A stretch of DNA of 7,450 bases, taken from the NCBI GenBank assembly GCA_051294375.1, contig JBJCIZ010000627.1, forward strand, positions 1-7,450, given 5' to 3'. The stretch comes from Paraspadella gotoi (taxonomy: Eukaryota > Animalia > Chaetognatha). The stretch's first letter is position 1. The number at the start of each line of letters is the position of its first letter. A model generated the notes under the pieces. It was given only the letters and a program-made list of their open reading frames with translations, ran no database searches and was not told the DNA's origin. Below are positions 1 through 7,426 of this stretch, in pieces. Made by a program: the position numbers and the translations under genes.

Positions 1-377
1 ATTTTTTGATCAAAAGCATTACTTACATTATTATTAATATTATATTTATAACATAATATTTTTAGTCGGATCAGCTTATTGCAGATTCCGATTCTATAAT
101 CCACTTTATCAGTCCTTTGGTCCTACCCAAAATTTTTTTTTGTAAATCATTTTTATCATATCAGAACCTTAAATTATAATAAATTATTATAAATTATGTC
201 TGTTTCTTTGTTGCACTAACAAAAAACTTTAATTACTCGTGATTAGATGAATAGATTGGAATAAAATTTTGTGAATAAGTAGAAAACTGTATGATTGAAC
301 TGAATGTAGTTTCGATGGAATTGTGAAATTGAGTTTAAATGAATAAAATTAAATATTACTTTTGTTTGAATTTTTAT

Positions 378-466
378 AAAGTTATACAAATTAAAAAAGT
401 TTTACAAGTTGAAAAAATTATTTAAGTTAAAAAACTTGTAGAAATTAAAAAATCATGCAAATCAAA
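378..466 (+). repeat. Degenerate 18-bp minisatellite, ~5 units (copy at 5047-5135)
   Basis: Units: aaagttatacaaattaaa / aaagttttacaagttgaa / aaaattatttaagttaaa / aaacttgtagaaattaaa / aaatcatgcaaatcaaa. Confidence 0.75.
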
Positions 467-542
467 ATAATGAACAAAATATTTAAAATATTGAAGAAAC
501 AGTAATTATTGTAATGTGTTAGTAACAGAACCGTTCAATATA

Positions 543-618
543 AGCAGTCCCTGAACTTCGGATCAGGCTGTAACACCATGTTACAGGCGGGTTAAGCGCC
601 CCGTCCCTCTTAACTGCC
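543..618 (-). ncRNA. Candidate twister self-cleaving ribozyme, type-P5 permutation, with minimal P1
   Basis: Minus strand: GGCAGUU-AA-GAGG-GA-CGGG-GCGC-U-U^AA-CCC-GC-CUGUAACA-UGG-UGUUACAG-CCUGA-UCCGAAGU-UCAGG-GACUGCU. P5 GGCAGUU/GACUGCU; P3 8 bp perfect; P4 CCUGA/UCAGG; 8-nt L4 UCCGAAGU (consensus-like UCCYAAGC); T1 UCCG/CGGG; T2 GC/GU; conserved GA and UAA. P2 is imperfect (CCC with GAGG, one bulged A). Predicted cut between 594 and 593. Confidence 0.8.
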
Positions 619-620
619 AG

Positions 621-692
621 ACGACCACCGGGCTAGAACCCCGGACCTTTGGGTTGGGAAGCGAATGACTTGCCTCCGGCACCAATGGCCGC
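621..692 (-). ncRNA. tRNA-derived head (Gly-like, degenerate anticodon arm); SINE-type Pol III promoter module
   Basis: 72 nt. Acceptor stem GCGGCCA/UGGUCGU, D-stem GGUG/CAUU with A-box-like UGGUGCCGGAGG, T-stem CCGGG/CCCGG with B-box-like GGUUCUAGCCC. The anticodon stem pairs poorly, so it is unlikely to be a decoding tRNA. Confidence 0.75.
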
Positions 693-1016
693 TGATGAAC
701 GGTTGGTAGATTTTAGTCCACCATAATATTATATTTGATAACATTTTTTTTAATGCGCAGCCACAAGTTTTTTGACTTATTGATCAATTGATTTATAAAT
801 TTTTTAAAAAATTTATTTAAAAATCTATTATAATTTATTTTCCTCTTTAATAAACTGATTACCGCTAAATTATTATAGATCTAACATTGTTTGCTCAAAC
901 TTGTTTTATCAGATTTGGAGTAAAAAATAATCCTTAGCAAATAGTGAAAAGGATTAATCCCTATAAAATAAACCAGGCTTGAATTATTGCTGCATAATAT
1001 GATTATTTTTTTTTTT

Positions 1017-1229
1017 TTAACAAAATCTTTAAGGAATAACAGATTTTTTTAAAGTTCAACAACGAATTTTTTATTTCATAGGGACATGTTTCGACTCTGT
1101 GGTTAAGAGTCTTCATCGAAACATGTCCCTATGAAATAAAAAATTTGTTGTTGAACTCGAAAAAATCTGTTATTCCTTAAATTCATAAACACAACGAAAA
1201 AGAAAATCATAACAATATTAACAAAATCT
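1017..1229. mobile_element. Palindromic Penelope-like-element (PLE) remnant with 12-bp target-site duplication
   Basis: Inverted arms 1028-1094 and 1116-1181 (~66 bp, about 3 mismatches and 1 indel) around a 21-nt spacer, then a 36-bp unpaired tail. TTAACAAAATCT is directly repeated at 1017-1028 and 1218-1229. A hammerhead core sits at the centre. Confidence 0.75.
1083..1117 (-). ncRNA. Truncated minimal hammerhead ribozyme core (PLE type), probably inactive
   Basis: Minus strand (UC)GAUGA-A-GACUC-UUAACCACA-GAGUC-GAAA-CAUGUC: 5-bp stem II, GAAA, palindromic ACAUGU in place of stem III, GUC triplet. The CU of CUGAUGA is lost at the fold-back junction. Confidence 0.7.
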
Positions 1230-1376
1230 AAAATTTTTTTTTTGGACTTGTTTAATACTTAAATCTGATAATACATTCACAGATAAATAAAAATGATAAT
1301 TTTTGCGTACAGAAAGGTTACCCAAAGCTTTTATTAATATTTTATAATATAAAAAAAAATTCTGGAACATTTACAG

Positions 1377-1431
1377 NNNNNNNNNNNNNNNNNNNNNNNN
1401 NNNNNNNNNNNNNNNNNNNNNNNNNNNNNNN
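1377..1431. other. Assembly gap (55 N)
   Basis: Run of N. It corresponds to ~102 bp (6041-6142) in the second copy. Confidence 1.
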
Positions 1432-1544
1432 AAAGGTAAAGATTTTTAATAATAATAGCTTAATTAAAAAATATTAAAAAATAACTGGAAATTAATATAT
1501 TTTGATACTTTCTAATATAAAAAAAATATTCTGAAACATTTACA

Positions 1545-1554
1545 NNNNNNNNNN
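1545..1554. other. Assembly gap (10 N); homology to copy 2 ends here
   Basis: Run of N. Sequence after it does not match 6255 onward. Confidence 1.
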
Positions 1555-1592
1555 AAATATTTGAATTTTACTGACTCTTAATTTAAAACAAT

Positions 1593-3108
1593 TTAATAAA
1601 ATTTTAATATGTTTAATTAAGCTAAGTCAGTTATATTTAATCTTTTAAAATTTTAAGTTAAAATTGTCAAAAACTTTTGAGGTATCAGGCCGCCAAAATA
1701 GCCTGTCGAGAGTCTGGAGCAAGATTCCTTACTAAATGAATGGATACTTTTTAATGCTAATTTTATAGTAGAAGTTATTAGTAAACCTTAGCTAATTCTT
1801 TAACTTGTACCAAATATTTAGTTATTTAATTATATTTAAGTTTAATTTATTATGATAAATAGCTTTAAAATAACCCTAACCTTGTGTTAAATAATAACGA
1901 CAGAATAGTGCCCATTTATATTTTGTAACTTAAGAAAAATAGTACAGAAACCAGCACAAAACTCTCATAACGACGCCGATCTGACGACGCTGAATACTCT
2001 CGCCAAAGACGTCAACACGCGTGGTGAAGCCGATACGCGACGTCAATGTCAGCACTTTATATCAGTTATTTGCTACACATACCAAAAAGAATAAGTTTGA
2101 ATGCAATCCAATTTTTCATTTCTAGGAAATATTTAAACACTTTAAAACAGATAAAGTTTGATAACCACATACAGGGGTGGGACCCTATATCGAGATAAAA
2201 CTTAACGTCCTGCCATGTCTGAACGATTTGGGATACAATAATAAAATCAAAATGAGTGGCAAAAGTTTATTCTGGATTTTTACTTTTATATACAATAAAA
2301 AAGAAATTTTTAAGCAACTACAAGGCGTCGTGGATGTTTTCAAAACATTTGGTCGTTTTTATGCGCATTGTATTGCATACAATATAAGCCATACTTGTTA
2401 ATATTTTTCAGTAATCGTTTCTGAACATGACAGTGTTATGTCTTATCAGCAATTCACCTGATTTTAAGCTTTTCATCACTATCCAAATTAAACCTATTTA
2501 ATTTTTGACTTATTTTTACATTCGCCTACCGGGATTTTTTGGTCGGTTATTTTTTTTTCGCTTCTTATGAAATCTCGGTACGCAAAAATAAAAAAAAGAC
2601 ATTGGTAAGGGGGACATATGTAAAAAGTGAGTCTTTTTGGGTTTTTTAAAAATTACTTAATTTTTTAATATGAAACATTAAATTATTAAAGCAAACATTT
2701 AAATTATATAAGATATATCATTTTTACAAAGCTTAATATATAATTTAATGATAAAAAATAACCCTAAACTTATGTTTTACATGTTTACTATCAGTATCAC
2801 TTTCATTGATGGCTTCTGTACCATTTTCCTAATATTAAGTAATCCTAATCGTGAATGGCAAATCATGTTAAGAGCGACACACTTTAAAAATGATTGCTAT
2901 TCTCTCGTTATTATTTAACACAAGGTTTGAGTTCTTTTAAAGCTATTTATCAGAAAAAAATTAACTTAAATATAATTATATATTTGAATATTTGTCACAC
3001 GTTAAAGAATTCTCTGAACCAGGAGTAAAGTAACAAGAATGCAGGAAAATAATATATTGACATCAGGAAAAAATCTTAGCTTAATTAAACATTTTAATAT
3101 TTTATTAA
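1593..3108. repeat. Diverged long inverted repeat (fold-back-like or inverted duplication)
   Basis: Three collinear inverted blocks: 1593-1626 vs 3075-3108 (32/34), 1794-1908 vs 2897-3011 (100/115 ungapped, hand count), 1930-1953 vs 2810-2832. Confidence 0.88.
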
Positions 3109-3491
3109 CTTTTATTAATGTTTTATCCGAACATCAAAATTTATTTTTAGCCCAAAAGACAAGTTAGTTCGGCAAAAACATGTACAAAATATGTACTTCG
3201 ATTTTTAATGTATTAGTAATTTATATAAATGTTTATGATGCATATTTATATCATATTATTTTGAGTATTTGATTACTATTTTCTAATAAAATTAAGTTTA
3301 TACACTTTTTTCATTTTTTATTCAGAAATATTTATTACATTTCTGTTTACCATAAAAAATATTAATTAATACTATTATTAAATATAATCAGTATATTTTT
3401 ATATATTTTTATCAGTAATCACTTAAGTAGTATAAATATTTTAAATTTGTATTTTAAAAAGAATTAATATGACAGTCTGCTATCTATAATT

Positions 3492-3578
3492 TTAAAAAAA
3501 CCCCAAAAAACAAAAAAAACCTAATAAAACCCAGCTCGCTGGTTTTTTTAAAAAAAACCCAGGTTCTTGCCAACCCAG
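3492..3578 (-). mobile_element. Solitary DNA-transposon terminus, hAT-like
   Basis: Minus strand reads CTGGGTTGGCAAGAACCTGGGTTTTTTTTAAAAAAACCAGCGAGCTGGGTTTTATTAGGTTTT. This resembles, from memory, invertebrate hAT ends starting CAGGGTTGGCAA with GGGTTTT-type subterminal repeats. No partner end or TSD is visible. Confidence 0.5.
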
Positions 3579-3714
3579 ATAACAGATTCGGATTCGTCAG
3601 AAAAAAATAAGAAACTTTTGTAAAATAAGTTTTATAATATTTTAATGTTAAAGCTGCGAAAAATTACAAAAACAATTTATCATATAATAGTGAAAAAGTA
3701 AAGAATTTTGACTG

Positions 3715-4258
3715 TTAAAATTTAACACTGTCGCAGACGTATTTGCTGAGAACTAGACAGACGTCGTCCTTGAGCGGATGACTTTGGTAAACGGATTCCC
3801 TCTCCGTGGTTCTTGCAAAACTAACAGCAGCGGCGAACGGAGGTGAGAGGAATTTTTCCGTGGTCGGATGTAAAACTGATGGTTTGTGCGGGACGCCAGC
3901 CGGGAATGATGGGGAAGAGTCGTTTGATGGTGGAGGCGAAGCCTTTGGCGTAGTTCGTAGTGATAGTCGGTCTTGGGAAGGCGGTCCTGGTGGCGGCGGC
4001 GACAAGGAGCGAGCCCGATCGTCGAGCGTTGCCCATAAGGTATCCTCGGCGGGAGAACGAGCGTCACACCCCCAAGTCCCAGGAAGAGGCGACGGCGCAG
4101 AATAATGGAACCAAGATAGCCACGGAGGTAATACGAAGGAGATTCAGTGATAACGCCGGAAAGTTATCTCCTGGCGTCGGAAAGCGGCGTCGACGCCGCC
4201 GACTTCGGAGACGAGATTCGGCATCGTAGGGGTCAAAGTCACTCGTCAGAGCAAATTC
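3715..4258 (-). other. GC/CpG-rich coding-like block of unknown identity (possible decayed exon or TE ORF)
   Basis: Sharp GC rise with several overlapping short ORFs. The Pro/Ser-rich minus frame ending at 3715 is open from about 4143, and an acceptor-like TTTAG precedes 4258 on the minus strand. No recognisable domain. Confidence 0.3.
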
Positions 4259-5211
4259 TAAATTTAAACAGACAGTTAATAAATACTACTACTAATTAAT
4301 AAAAGTAATCACTATGAAACACAAACAGTATCAAATATAAAAAGTAAATACGAGTCCCATGCCATGAATCGCGTACGGAGGCAGACGATCATAAAAGTAC
4401 CATGATGGAAAAAAAAATTGTCGCGGTTTTGAAAAGTTAATTTCATTATCAAATATATTTTTAGTATAATTATTAATAATAAATTAATCAATTAATCGAT
4501 CAAAAACATTTCAGATCAAATTGCCTAATTAATTAAATAATTAACTTGAATAAATTAATTATTAATTAATTAAATACTGATAATGATTGTAGGCAGATCT
4601 GACATTGTTTGCTCAAACTTGTTTAACCAATAAATAAGTTTAATATATAATATAACCTCCTTGGGATTAAATTTTTTGATCAAAAGCATTACTTACATTA
4701 TTATTAATATTATATTTATAACATAATATTTTTAGTCGGATCAGCTTATTGCAGATTCCGATTCTATAATCCACTTTATCAGTCCTTTGGTCCTACCCAA
4801 ATTTTTTTTTGTAAATCATTTTTATCATATCAGAACCTTAAATTATAATAAATTATTATAAATTATGTCTGTTTCTTTGTTGCACTAACAAAAAACTTTA
4901 ATTACTCGTGATTAGATGAATAGATTGGAATAAAATTTTGTGAATAAGTAGAAAACTGTATGATTGAACTGAATGTAGTTTCGATGGAATTGTGAAATTG
5001 AGTTTAAATGAATAAAATTAAATATTACTTTTGTTTGAATTTTTATAAAGTTATACAAATTAAAAAAGTTTTACAAGTTGAAAAAATTATTTAAGTTAAA
5101 AAACTTGTAGAAATTAAAAAATCATGCAAATCAAAATAATGAACAAAATATTTAAAATATTGAAGAAACAGTAATTATTGTAATGTGTTAGTAACAGAAC
5201 CGTTCAATATA

Positions 5212-5286
5212 AGCAGTCCCTGAACTTCGGATCAGGCTGTAACACCATGTTACAGGCGGGTTAAGCGCCCGTCCCTCTTAACTGCC
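5212..5286 (-). ncRNA. Second copy of the candidate type-P5 twister ribozyme
   Basis: Identical to 543-618 except one G fewer in the G-run (GA-CGGG-CGC-UUAA). Predicted cut between 5263 and 5262. Confidence 0.75.
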
Positions 5287-5288
5287 AG

Positions 5289-5359
5289 ACGACCACCGGG
5301 CTAGAACCCGGACCTTTGGGTTGGGAAGCGAATGACTTGCCTCCGGCACCAATGGCCGC
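5289..5359 (-). ncRNA. Second copy of the tRNA-derived head
   Basis: Identical to 621-692 except one G fewer in the T-arm G-run. Confidence 0.72.
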
Positions 5360-5683
5360 TGATGAACGGTTGGTAGATTTTAGTCCACCATAATATTATA
5401 TTTGATAACATTTTTTTTAATGCGCAGCCACAAGTTTTTTGACTTATTGATCAATTGATTTATAAATTTTTTAAAAAATTTATTTAAAAATCTATTATAA
5501 TTTATTTTCCTCTTTAATAAACTGATTACCGCTAAATTATTATAGATCTAACATTGTTTGCTCAAACTTGTTTTATCAGATTTGGAGTAAAAAATAATCC
5601 TTAGCAAATAGTGAAAAGGATTAATCCCTATAAAATAAACCAGGCTTGAATTATTGCTGCATAATATGATTATTTTTTTTTTT

Positions 5684-5894
5684 TTAACAAAATCTTTAAG
5701 GAATAACAGATTTTTTTAAAGTTCAACAACGAATTTTTTATTTCATAGGGACATGTTTCGACTCTGTGGTTAAGAGTCTTCATCGAAACATGTCCTATGA
5801 AATAAAAAATTTGTTGTTGAACTCGAAAAAATCTGTTATTCCTTAAATTCATAAACACAACGAAAAAGAAATCATAACAATATTAACAAAATCT
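5684..5894. mobile_element. Second copy of the palindromic PLE/hammerhead remnant
   Basis: Palindrome 5695-5847; TSD TTAACAAAATCT at 5684-5695 and 5883-5894. Confidence 0.73.
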
Positions 5895-6008
5895 AAAATT
5901 TTTTTTTGGACTTGTTTAATACTTAAATCTGATAATACATTCACAGATAAATAAAAATGATAATTTTTGCGTACAGAAAGGTTACCCAAAGCTTTTATTA
6001 ATATTTTA

Positions 6009-6430
6009 TAATATAAAAAAAAATTCTGGAACATTTACAGCATTTTTTTTAATACCACTCTTTTTTAAGATAAAAATTAAGATTCATCCCTGAATCTATC
6101 CTAATGAAGATGATGCAATAAACATTTAATATGAGACTGAAAAAAGGTAAAGATTTTTAATAATAATAGCTTAATTAAAAAATATTAAAAAATAACTGGA
6201 AATTAATATATTTGATACTTTCTAATATAAAAAAAATATTCTGAAACATTTACAGCATTAATATATTTTTAATACCACTCTTTTTTAAGATATAAATTAA
6301 TATACATCCTTAAATTTATCCTGATGAAGATAATGCAATAACTATTTGATATGAGATTGAAAAAAGGTAAGGATTTTTAATAATAACGGTTTAACTAAAA
6401 AAATATTAAAAAACATCGGAAAATAGTATA
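6009..6430 (+). repeat. Diverged tandem duplication, period ~214 bp
   Basis: Units start at 6009 and 6223 and share, in order, aacatttacagcatt, tttttaataccactcttttttaagata, atgaagat-atgcaataa, tgaaaaaaggtaa-gatttttaataataa. Confidence 0.92.
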
Positions 6431-7017
6431 AATAAAAAATATAAATATAAAAAAGATAAAAAAAAAGAAAGCATTTTTTGAACAACTCATTTTATTTTTC
6501 ATAAAACTTTTGTATTTTTATTTTTTTTTTTCCATCATGGTATGAACGTTATAACCGTAACACCATCCGCGAATTGCAGTGTCAAGTCCGCAAAACAATT
6601 TCCGCTAATAGAGTCAAGTAAAAAAATATTATAACTTACCACGTTCTTTTTATGTGCCATTAAATCATAGAGATTAAAAAAAATTATTTTGAGATATTTT
6701 TTTTTTGTAATGGGACAGGTTCCATAAAATTAACAGCAATAATAATATTTTAAATAGTTCAAAAATAACAATATTATAGTACTCGTAGCTCGTAGTGTTA
6801 GGACCCGCCGGTCCGTCCCTCGGCGAGCCGCTTCGGGCAAATAGTTGAAGGTTCTCGCAAACTATTTGTAACATAGTCGGGACTCCTGGTCAAAACGCCG
6901 CAGTTTTACGAAATCTCAAAATTGTTTTAAAACAAACAACAAATGTACATATTTAACGTAAAATCTATTTATTAATTATAATTTTCGTAAAAAAAGAAAA
7001 AAAATCGAGCGGGAATA

Positions 7018-7426
7018 ATGTTTATAAACTCGCGAGTCAACAAAACCTCTGATTCGTGAACCGCGGCTGGCTCGACGAAGTGCCATGGCTTTCGGTTTGG
7101 TTCTTGCGGTAACGTAAGTTATGCGCATTCAGGGCCGTATAAAGAATCCCAGAGCGAACAAAAGTCGGGGATTTAATTGTATTTCATTTAAAAACACGAT
7201 TGCGCCACGATTGCTCCACCGGGAAACAAATGACAACGCACAAATTGATCTCTTGGTCAATTTAAAAGAAATAGTTAAGGACGGCGATACGTGGAAAATA
7301 AAGCCCGAAAAACCAGTTAATTGGATTGTTAAATTAAACAAGCAAGCTTGGTAAAATTTAAAGAAAAAAAGATACCCTGTCTTCGCCAAGACAAGAGTCT
7401 ATCTGACTGGGTAACCATACCCATGT
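7018..7426 (+). pseudogene. Possible decayed coding sequence of unknown product
   Basis: Moderate GC. The 77-aa ORF 7121-7354 reads protein-like (AQIDLLVNLKEIVKDGDTWKIKPEKPVNWIVKLNKQAW) and the frame continues past single stops on both sides. No family recognised. Confidence 0.25.

Follow-up and report, generated by a model that had tools for sequence, protein, structure and literature searches.

The minus strand of positions 617-544 carries what is, judged by its letters, a real twister-type ribozyme motif, a variant that Rfam leaves unannotated and that lies in an unusual repeat element. The window, that is, the whole stretch of DNA analysed, is 7,450 nt of Paraspadella gotoi (contig JBJCIZ010000627.1), and the motif was recognised there in the type-P5 order by sequence inspection and with a descriptor. 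Its P1 stem has collapsed to a linker of six bases. The results showed that the collapsed P1, together with a short P2 strand, is the state of the family and no private deletion of this copy. We tentatively favour the reading that this collapsed-P1 twister would cleave itself slowly as a single molecule, and that the palindrome of its linker would be unneeded.

Layout of the motif and state of its linker

The motif opens with the 5' strand of P5, GCAGUU (617-612), which pairs with GACUGC (549-544) and is followed by AA. P2' is GAGG (609-606) and pairs with CCC (591-589), so that P2 (589-609) is imperfect, with three pairs and a bulged A in place of a 4-bp stem. G605, the predicted general base, and A604 follow, and then the T1 3' strand (T1'), CGG (603-601), which is complementary to 559-561. 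After the linker GGCGCU (600-595) comes U^AA (594-592). By analogy with known twisters (accessible text of PMC11662667), the scissile bond is predicted at U594^A593 and A593 is the predicted general acid. The T2 letters GC (588-587) lead into the P3 hairpin (586-568, from folding) and a 5-bp P4 (567-563 with 554-550, pair probabilities 0.98-1.0). P4 is closed by L4, UCCGAAGU (562-555), which bears the T1 and T2 strands.

All twister core letters were found, namely U^AA, GA, GC...GC of T2 and U-NNN-A-A-G-C of L4. Every pair named in this layout is standard. T1 has three pairs (C603-G559, G602-C560 and G601-C561); its CCG/CGG spelling is the less common type, yet it is complementary. T2 has one G.U in copy 1, where 98-99% of the family depth has G-C. 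Both pseudoknots and every catalytic letter are thus intact in sequence. The P1 stem is a different matter: at most one or two intramolecular pairs are available, and a 1-bp hairpin costs +5.6 kcal/mol. In the window, the type-P5 descriptor matched only the two repeat copies. It matched none of 20,000 dinucleotide shuffles made from 492-725, and none of another 20,000 made from 540-625; the descriptor had been drawn up to admit the 3-nt P2 strand seen here and is biased towards this sequence. None of the Rfam twister models (RF02684, RF03160 and the P3 model) matched the window at E up to 1, and Rfam on 500-740 at E up to 10 returned no twister, tRNA or other ribozyme. In a control, Rfam recovered ordinary type-P5 twisters in 6/9 phage loci. 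A plus-strand hammerhead candidate (CUGAUGA near 692-698) was rejected on inspection, with no GAAA past the partner strand.

The minus strand reads G605 A604 C603 G602 G601 G600, then G599 C598 G597 C596, then U595 U594 ^ A593 A592. The initial annotation had described a 4-nt gap, GCGC, between T1 and U-U^AA. The letters were right and the length was recounted: a 4-bp T1 gives four bases, whereas the L1 3' strand of the Rfam Twister-P5 model has 5 nt (GA plus 3 nt), and the linker is accordingly counted here as a 6-mer, GGCGCU. Its self-complementarity, also noted at the outset, holds for the GCGC core (599-596) and for the hexamer. G600.U595 falls at the position of the top P1 pair, which places the hexamer in the exact P1 register. 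By itself the palindrome says little, its chance being 0.062 for the 4-mer and 0.024 for the in-register 6-mer.

The second repeat copy (5161-5392, minus strand) lies inside a duplicate of the same locus of at least 1.4 kb, and the sequence bears out the earlier remark that this copy has one G fewer at the linker. Window positions 1-1550 recur at approximately 4670-6260. Over 1,376 columns the two show 0 substitutions, and they differ by six deletions of one base each, every one of them in a homopolymer run. N gaps lie between the copies, with N at 1377-1431 and 1545-1554. The second copy is likely an assembly duplicate with homopolymer errors of the long-read type, the missing linker G among them. 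No indel of at least 1% over 540-630 was listed in the contigs of 4/4 public runs. Because of this, and because the deletions of copy 2 are all homopolymeric, the linker spelling of copy 1 is that of the family.

The family state was judged among copies at least 80% alike. Within that likeness, the case in which homologues keep a normal P1 that was lost only here did not occur. The P2 5' strand, one base short (CCC against GAGG) and unmentioned in the initial annotation, is likewise a family state. Only two changes were listed at the linker. One is 598 G>A, at 1.9%, 0.4% and 0.5% of depth in runs X4, X6 and X9, respectively; the other is 596 G>A, at 2.9% in X4 and below 0.1% in the other two runs. 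The variant table skips sites near stretch ends (555 is absent, though it stands at 99% in another tally), and the linker is central. As to whether homologous copies retain the palindrome, the family is near-invariant at the linker, and no compensatory change was listed at 1% or above. In a single rearranged contig the linker is AGCCCU, which keeps the outer two pairs and breaks the inner pair. From a second organism (run X10, share 0.10) came a single contig of 250 nt with one difference over 540-630, which is uninformative for covariation and spread.

The repeat that carries the motif

The window is AT-rich, with a G+C-rich island near 525-715 that recurs 4,667 bases on. Depth and loose contig ends define a very abundant dispersed repeat of 234 bp at 492-725, read on the minus strand, whose plus strand starts with TG (492-493) and ends with TA (724-725). 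In runs X1 and X4, the summed contig depth was approximately 0.6-2.7 million at about 524-721, and about 200-7,000 in most bins of the flanks. This sum is not a copy number; it shows that the dispersed repeat is very abundant. High depth was also seen over a low-complexity stretch at 398-433. Loose contig ends cluster before 491/492 and behind 725-729. ATAT stands at 488-491 (from sequence) and at 726-729 (from sequence and loose ends) as a candidate 4-bp target-site duplication, which rests on one locus in AT-rich DNA. The contigs matching through 729 numbered 20 and 33, where independent letters in the flank would give 1.3 and 2.1, and shared flanks or AT-rich alignment run-on may inflate these counts. 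As ATAT flanks both sides, copy 1 is solo.

The termini are TG...TA on the plus strand and TA...CA on the minus strand and differ from the canonical TG...CA. The loose letters behind 725 begin with CA in 3/4 runs, so the family end may lie two bases further. Copy 1 departs from the 97-99% majority at five listed places; three of these are paired, all of them G.U here and G-C in the majority. Copy 1 thus looks slightly decayed relative to the family majority.

A degenerate tRNA-like segment at 618-691 of the minus strand, a candidate Pol III internal promoter, adjoins the 5' end of the ribozyme. It was found with a covariance model built from 14 E. coli (bacterial) tRNAs and run unfiltered over the whole window. 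The segment 691-618 scored E 0.042 and that of copy 2 scored E 0.15, the top two of 12 window matches, at full model length and with rough calibration. The pairwise likeness to tRNA was weak, since the best score was reached by 99/1,000 shuffles and the summed score by 27/1,000, and neither ARAGORN nor Rfam reported a tRNA in the element. BLAST of the tRNA-like part against phages and of the whole element against plasmids gave short chance matches only. A B-box-like motif with one mismatch lies at 640-630 (minus strand) and is not significant alone. The tRNA-like segment starts 34 nt inside the element, not at its 5' end, and ends where the ribozyme begins. Runs of four U disfavour Pol III transcription; the minus strand has none, which fits, and the plus strand has one.

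Folding of the minus strand gave a 9-bp outer stem (approximately 705-697 with 536-528) that would enclose the tRNA-like segment and the ribozyme (528-705), and a terminal hairpin is seen in the sequence at 703-723. The 3' end at 492 is sharp, with no clear A-rich or simple-repeat tail. Counted from the minus-strand 5' end, the predicted cut site stands at 132 nt, well within the element. Tandem joints reached a depth of no more than about 85-110 in X4 (about single-locus) against about 2 million for the family, in contigs that show two-LTR elements poorly. No internal region of an LTR element (primer site, purine tract) was seen in the window. We lean, at somewhat less than even confidence, towards a solo LTR that stems from a small, non-autonomous LTR element of the Helenus or retrozyme kind. 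A SINE-like element is a weaker possibility, and something other than these two is slightly less probable still.

The window holds further features. A near-perfect foldback (z = -21) lies at 1026-1183 and again at 5693-5848. Its centre (minus strand, 1117-1083) contains a minimal hammerhead-like remnant composed of GAUGA, a stem, GAAAC, the palindrome ACAUGU and UC, with the first two core letters absent. We take a foldback with such a remnant at 1026-1183 to be typical of the ends of Penelope-like elements (PLEs). Nested long inverted repeats (1794-1920 with 2885-3011, 84%; 1583-1626 with 3075-3118, 89%) suggest the termini of a DNA transposon or MITE. The G+C-rich stretch 3715-4260 has several open frames and an AG-like splice context near 4256, and is possibly a minus-strand exon of a low-complexity protein. 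A 220-bp unit occurs twice in tandem at 6001-6458 (approximately 85% alike). Another G+C-richer stretch, 6796-7150, starts with TGTTAGG and resembles the start of a Gypsy-type LTR.

Predicted folding and routes to cleavage

The folding energies given here omit pseudoknots, Mg2+ and tertiary contacts. In the pseudoknot-free ensemble, a blocking hairpin of 603-600 with 591-588 was predicted with a pair probability of approximately 0.99. In the predicted fold, this hairpin would hide T1', P2 and T2. The blocked fold lies 7.8 kcal/mol below the twister's own pseudoknot-free secondary structure; for comparison, the minimum-energy folds of 3/3 phage type-P5 twisters contain P1, P2 and P4. The 6-bp duplex of GGCGCU has an energy of -8.3 kcal/mol. 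When two molecules swap strands and share this duplex as their P1, the dimer, a nested structure, reaches -52.7 kcal/mol. Relative to a pair of open monomers this is a gain of 11.3 kcal/mol. Relative to a pair of blocked monomers it is a cost of 4.3 kcal/mol, compared with 15.6 kcal/mol for two monomers that refold alone. Because the uncounted pseudoknots and Mg2+ favour both active forms alike, the dimer has the smaller barrier. A swapped dimer would thus possibly offset part of the predicted blocking hairpin, which leaves the dimer idea alive. The cofold minimum, for its part, joins the copies through P3 and not through the linker. We discarded a kissing-loop dimer in which no strands are exchanged, since its geometry would put G600 and U595 at opposite helix ends.

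For the attenuated single-molecule twister that we favour, the following course is proposed. The tRNA-like segment would serve Pol III as promoter for the minus strand, and most molecules would be held in the blocking hairpin. In a minority, T1 and T2 would form and the RNA would be cut at U594^A593, with the six-base linker merely bridging the place of P1. Such damped cleavage would fit the mid-element position of the cut site. If the element is an LTR, two cuts in a full element would yield a unit able to circularise, as in plant retrozymes.

Studies have shown that P1 is dispensable in twisters and that its deletion keeps a near wild-type rate (accessible part of PMC5408937); those experiments used free ends and no covalent 6-nt linker as here. 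The cleavage of a P1-less twister was called inefficient in an excerpt of PMC8501958. Among approximately 1,950 scored natural type-P1 twisters, cleavage was no lower where P1 or P2 had flaws or the pseudoknots had wobbles, and G.U in T2 was tolerated; of the natural twisters tested, approximately 94% cleaved, many of them imperfect (PMC11662667, as far as its accessible text goes). The ribozymes of plant retrozymes are likewise predicted in a blocked conformation (accessible text of PMC4918200).

The initial annotation had suggested a ribozyme that was possibly P1-less or dimer-activated. Its first half agrees with the family-wide collapsed linker and with the dispensable P1 of other twisters. 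The second half was not demonstrated, and we regard dimer activation as possible but unsupported. In such a dimer, the GGCGCU of two copies would form a shared 6-bp P1 by strand swapping, the left half of one copy working with the right half of its partner, which we consider rather unlikely. It is equally doubtful that efficient cleavage occurs only when copies meet, either in trans or as LTRs or tandem units of one transcript. The exact register of the hexamer, in which G600 pairs with the base beside the partner's U-1, argues for the dimer, as does an energy nearer to the blocked state than that of lone monomers (4.3 against 15.6 kcal/mol above it). PLE and amphibian hammerheads with a short palindromic stem III are a precedent (accessible parts of PMC6765202 and PMC7761336), but that precedent concerns a stem which is needed there, whereas P1 is dispensable in twisters (PMC5408937 and PMC11662667, in part). 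In addition, loop loss leaves a palindrome in any hairpin, whatever its function, and chance alone gives one at 0.024-0.06 anyway. In the family contigs no compensatory change of the palindrome reaches 1%, the rearranged contig with AGCCCU breaks the inner linker pair, tandem joints look rare (about single-locus depth), copy 1 is solo, and the cofold minimum uses P3 for the dimer contact. In the hatchet ribozyme, a 4-nt palindrome makes dimers, yet catalysis is as good without it (accessible text of PMC6561176 and PMC7357161). The fullest form of the idea is an animal twister LTR retrozyme, Pol III-driven and non-coding, whose hairpin-shut twister is opened when the two LTRs of a full-length transcript pair via GGCGCU; we judge it quite improbable. 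If it were true, only complete elements would cut and circularise and many solo copies would be near silent. The twister would then be dimer-gated in nature, and no report of such a case was found in the open-access literature.

An inactive relic is also conceivable at a low probability. Its founder would have been inactivated by two deletions, of the P1 loop and of a single base in P2, and amplification would have followed, as an RNA that no longer cuts itself in mid-element is a better template. The two lesions are fixed in the family, and the dominant predicted blocking hairpin fits a silenced ribozyme. The internal cut site points the same way, since an internal ribozyme would truncate a SINE (accessible text of PMC5786205), and record starts or ends do not pile up at the cut site in the contigs, which are the only records considered. 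The intact catalytic letters and pseudoknots speak against a relic, but weakly, because recent amplification preserves them without selection; that most tested natural twisters cleave in spite of imperfections (PMC11662667, in part) also stands against it. An accidental likeness to twisters, or a short linker produced by the assembly, is very improbable. The missing Rfam match and an assembly with homopolymer errors and N gaps would agree with it, but no shuffle matched and the same linker spelling occurs in independent public runs, and this reading is largely refuted.

Relatives and comparison with known systems

Relatives were sought by pattern scans. No viral locus matched the relative pattern, and 15 metagenome loci that did match had no twister stems on inspection. 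Another 14 viral loci with the P4/L4 motif were rejected, as 0/14 had the upstream UAA..GC. A search for short-P1 type-P5 twisters took at least 271 loci from four pattern scans to six distinct descriptor matches among the matches listed; these scans cover only common P4/L4 spellings and one reached about a third of the collection, so the sample is small and biased. Two of the matches, L071 and L139, have 3/4 P2 pairs and a 3-bp P4 and are likely chance. The 6-nt 'linker' of L124 and L153 was rejected as the junction of two tandem type-P1 twisters. On these phage contigs (L124, 39-138, minus strand; L153, 20-119, plus strand), the two twisters lie head to tail with almost no spacer and below the Rfam gathering score. 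Three of the six matches listed were judged real; these phage or prokaryote type-P5 twisters have linkers of 18, 20 and 12 nt (those of L022 and L025 are longer by Rfam), against 6 nt here.

No report of a natural twister that is P1-collapsed, dimeric or LTR-borne was found in the open-access literature; truncated twisters at the 5' ends of RTE elements are mentioned as unpublished in a review (accessible part of PMC7761336). Rfam misses twisters whose P1 is this collapsed, which can leave even a very abundant family without annotation, and others may hide likewise. The element offers a natural test case for two questions, how small the P1 of a twister can be and whether pairing can switch a twister on, as in minimal hammerheads. 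With a tRNA-like promoter fused to a permuted twister inside a repeat that resembles an LTR, the retrozyme-type elements would come to include a second class of ribozyme.

Compared with the type-P5 twister (RF02684), the motif has the same order, P2'-GA-T1'-P1-UAA-P2-GC-P3-P4/L4 with the ends at P5, the same core letters, and complementary T1 and T2. The RF02684 model has an 8-bp P1 hairpin, whereas a 6-nt linker and a 3-nt P2 5' strand are found here and Rfam gives no match. The mini-twister without P1 (Kosutic 2015, as cited in the accessible text of PMC5408937) likewise has no stable P1; it is engineered and has free ends, whereas the motif here is natural and has a 6-nt covalent joint. The hammerheads of PLEs and amphibian satellites share the shrinking of a stem to a short palindrome in a mobile repeat, and cleavage as dimers was proposed there. 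They differ in ribozyme class, in lying in tandem and in needing stem III, while the P1 of twisters is dispensable. In the Schistosoma SINE-like hammerhead repeats, a Pol III promoter is followed by a ribozyme, as here, but these are hammerheads in tandem arrays (PMC6765202, in part). The P3 start of S. mansoni twisters (accessible text of PMC8501958) resembles that of P3 here; the Perere-3 (RTE) twisters are of type P1, lie at the 5' end of the element and obtain P1 from the target site, whereas the motif here has the type-P5 order and is internal.

The element's motifs matched none of the Helenus entries in the supplement of PMC10886601. The Helenus TRIMs have, like this element, a tRNA-like sequence inside a short repeat and not at its start, a 4-bp target duplication in animals and many solo LTRs; their LTRs end in TG...CA and no ribozyme is described in the accessible text of PMC10886601, whereas a twister motif and TG...TA are found here. 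The plant LTR retrozymes are also non-coding, with a permuted ribozyme in a unit the size of a terminal repeat, a 4-bp target duplication, solo copies and a predicted blocked state. They carry a hammerhead, LTRs of approximately 330 bp and a known internal region (accessible text of PMC4918200), in contrast to the twister, the tRNA-like segment and the lack of a visible internal region here. Overall, the anatomy appears closest to that of a solo LTR of a Helenus-type TRIM or a plant-type retrozyme.
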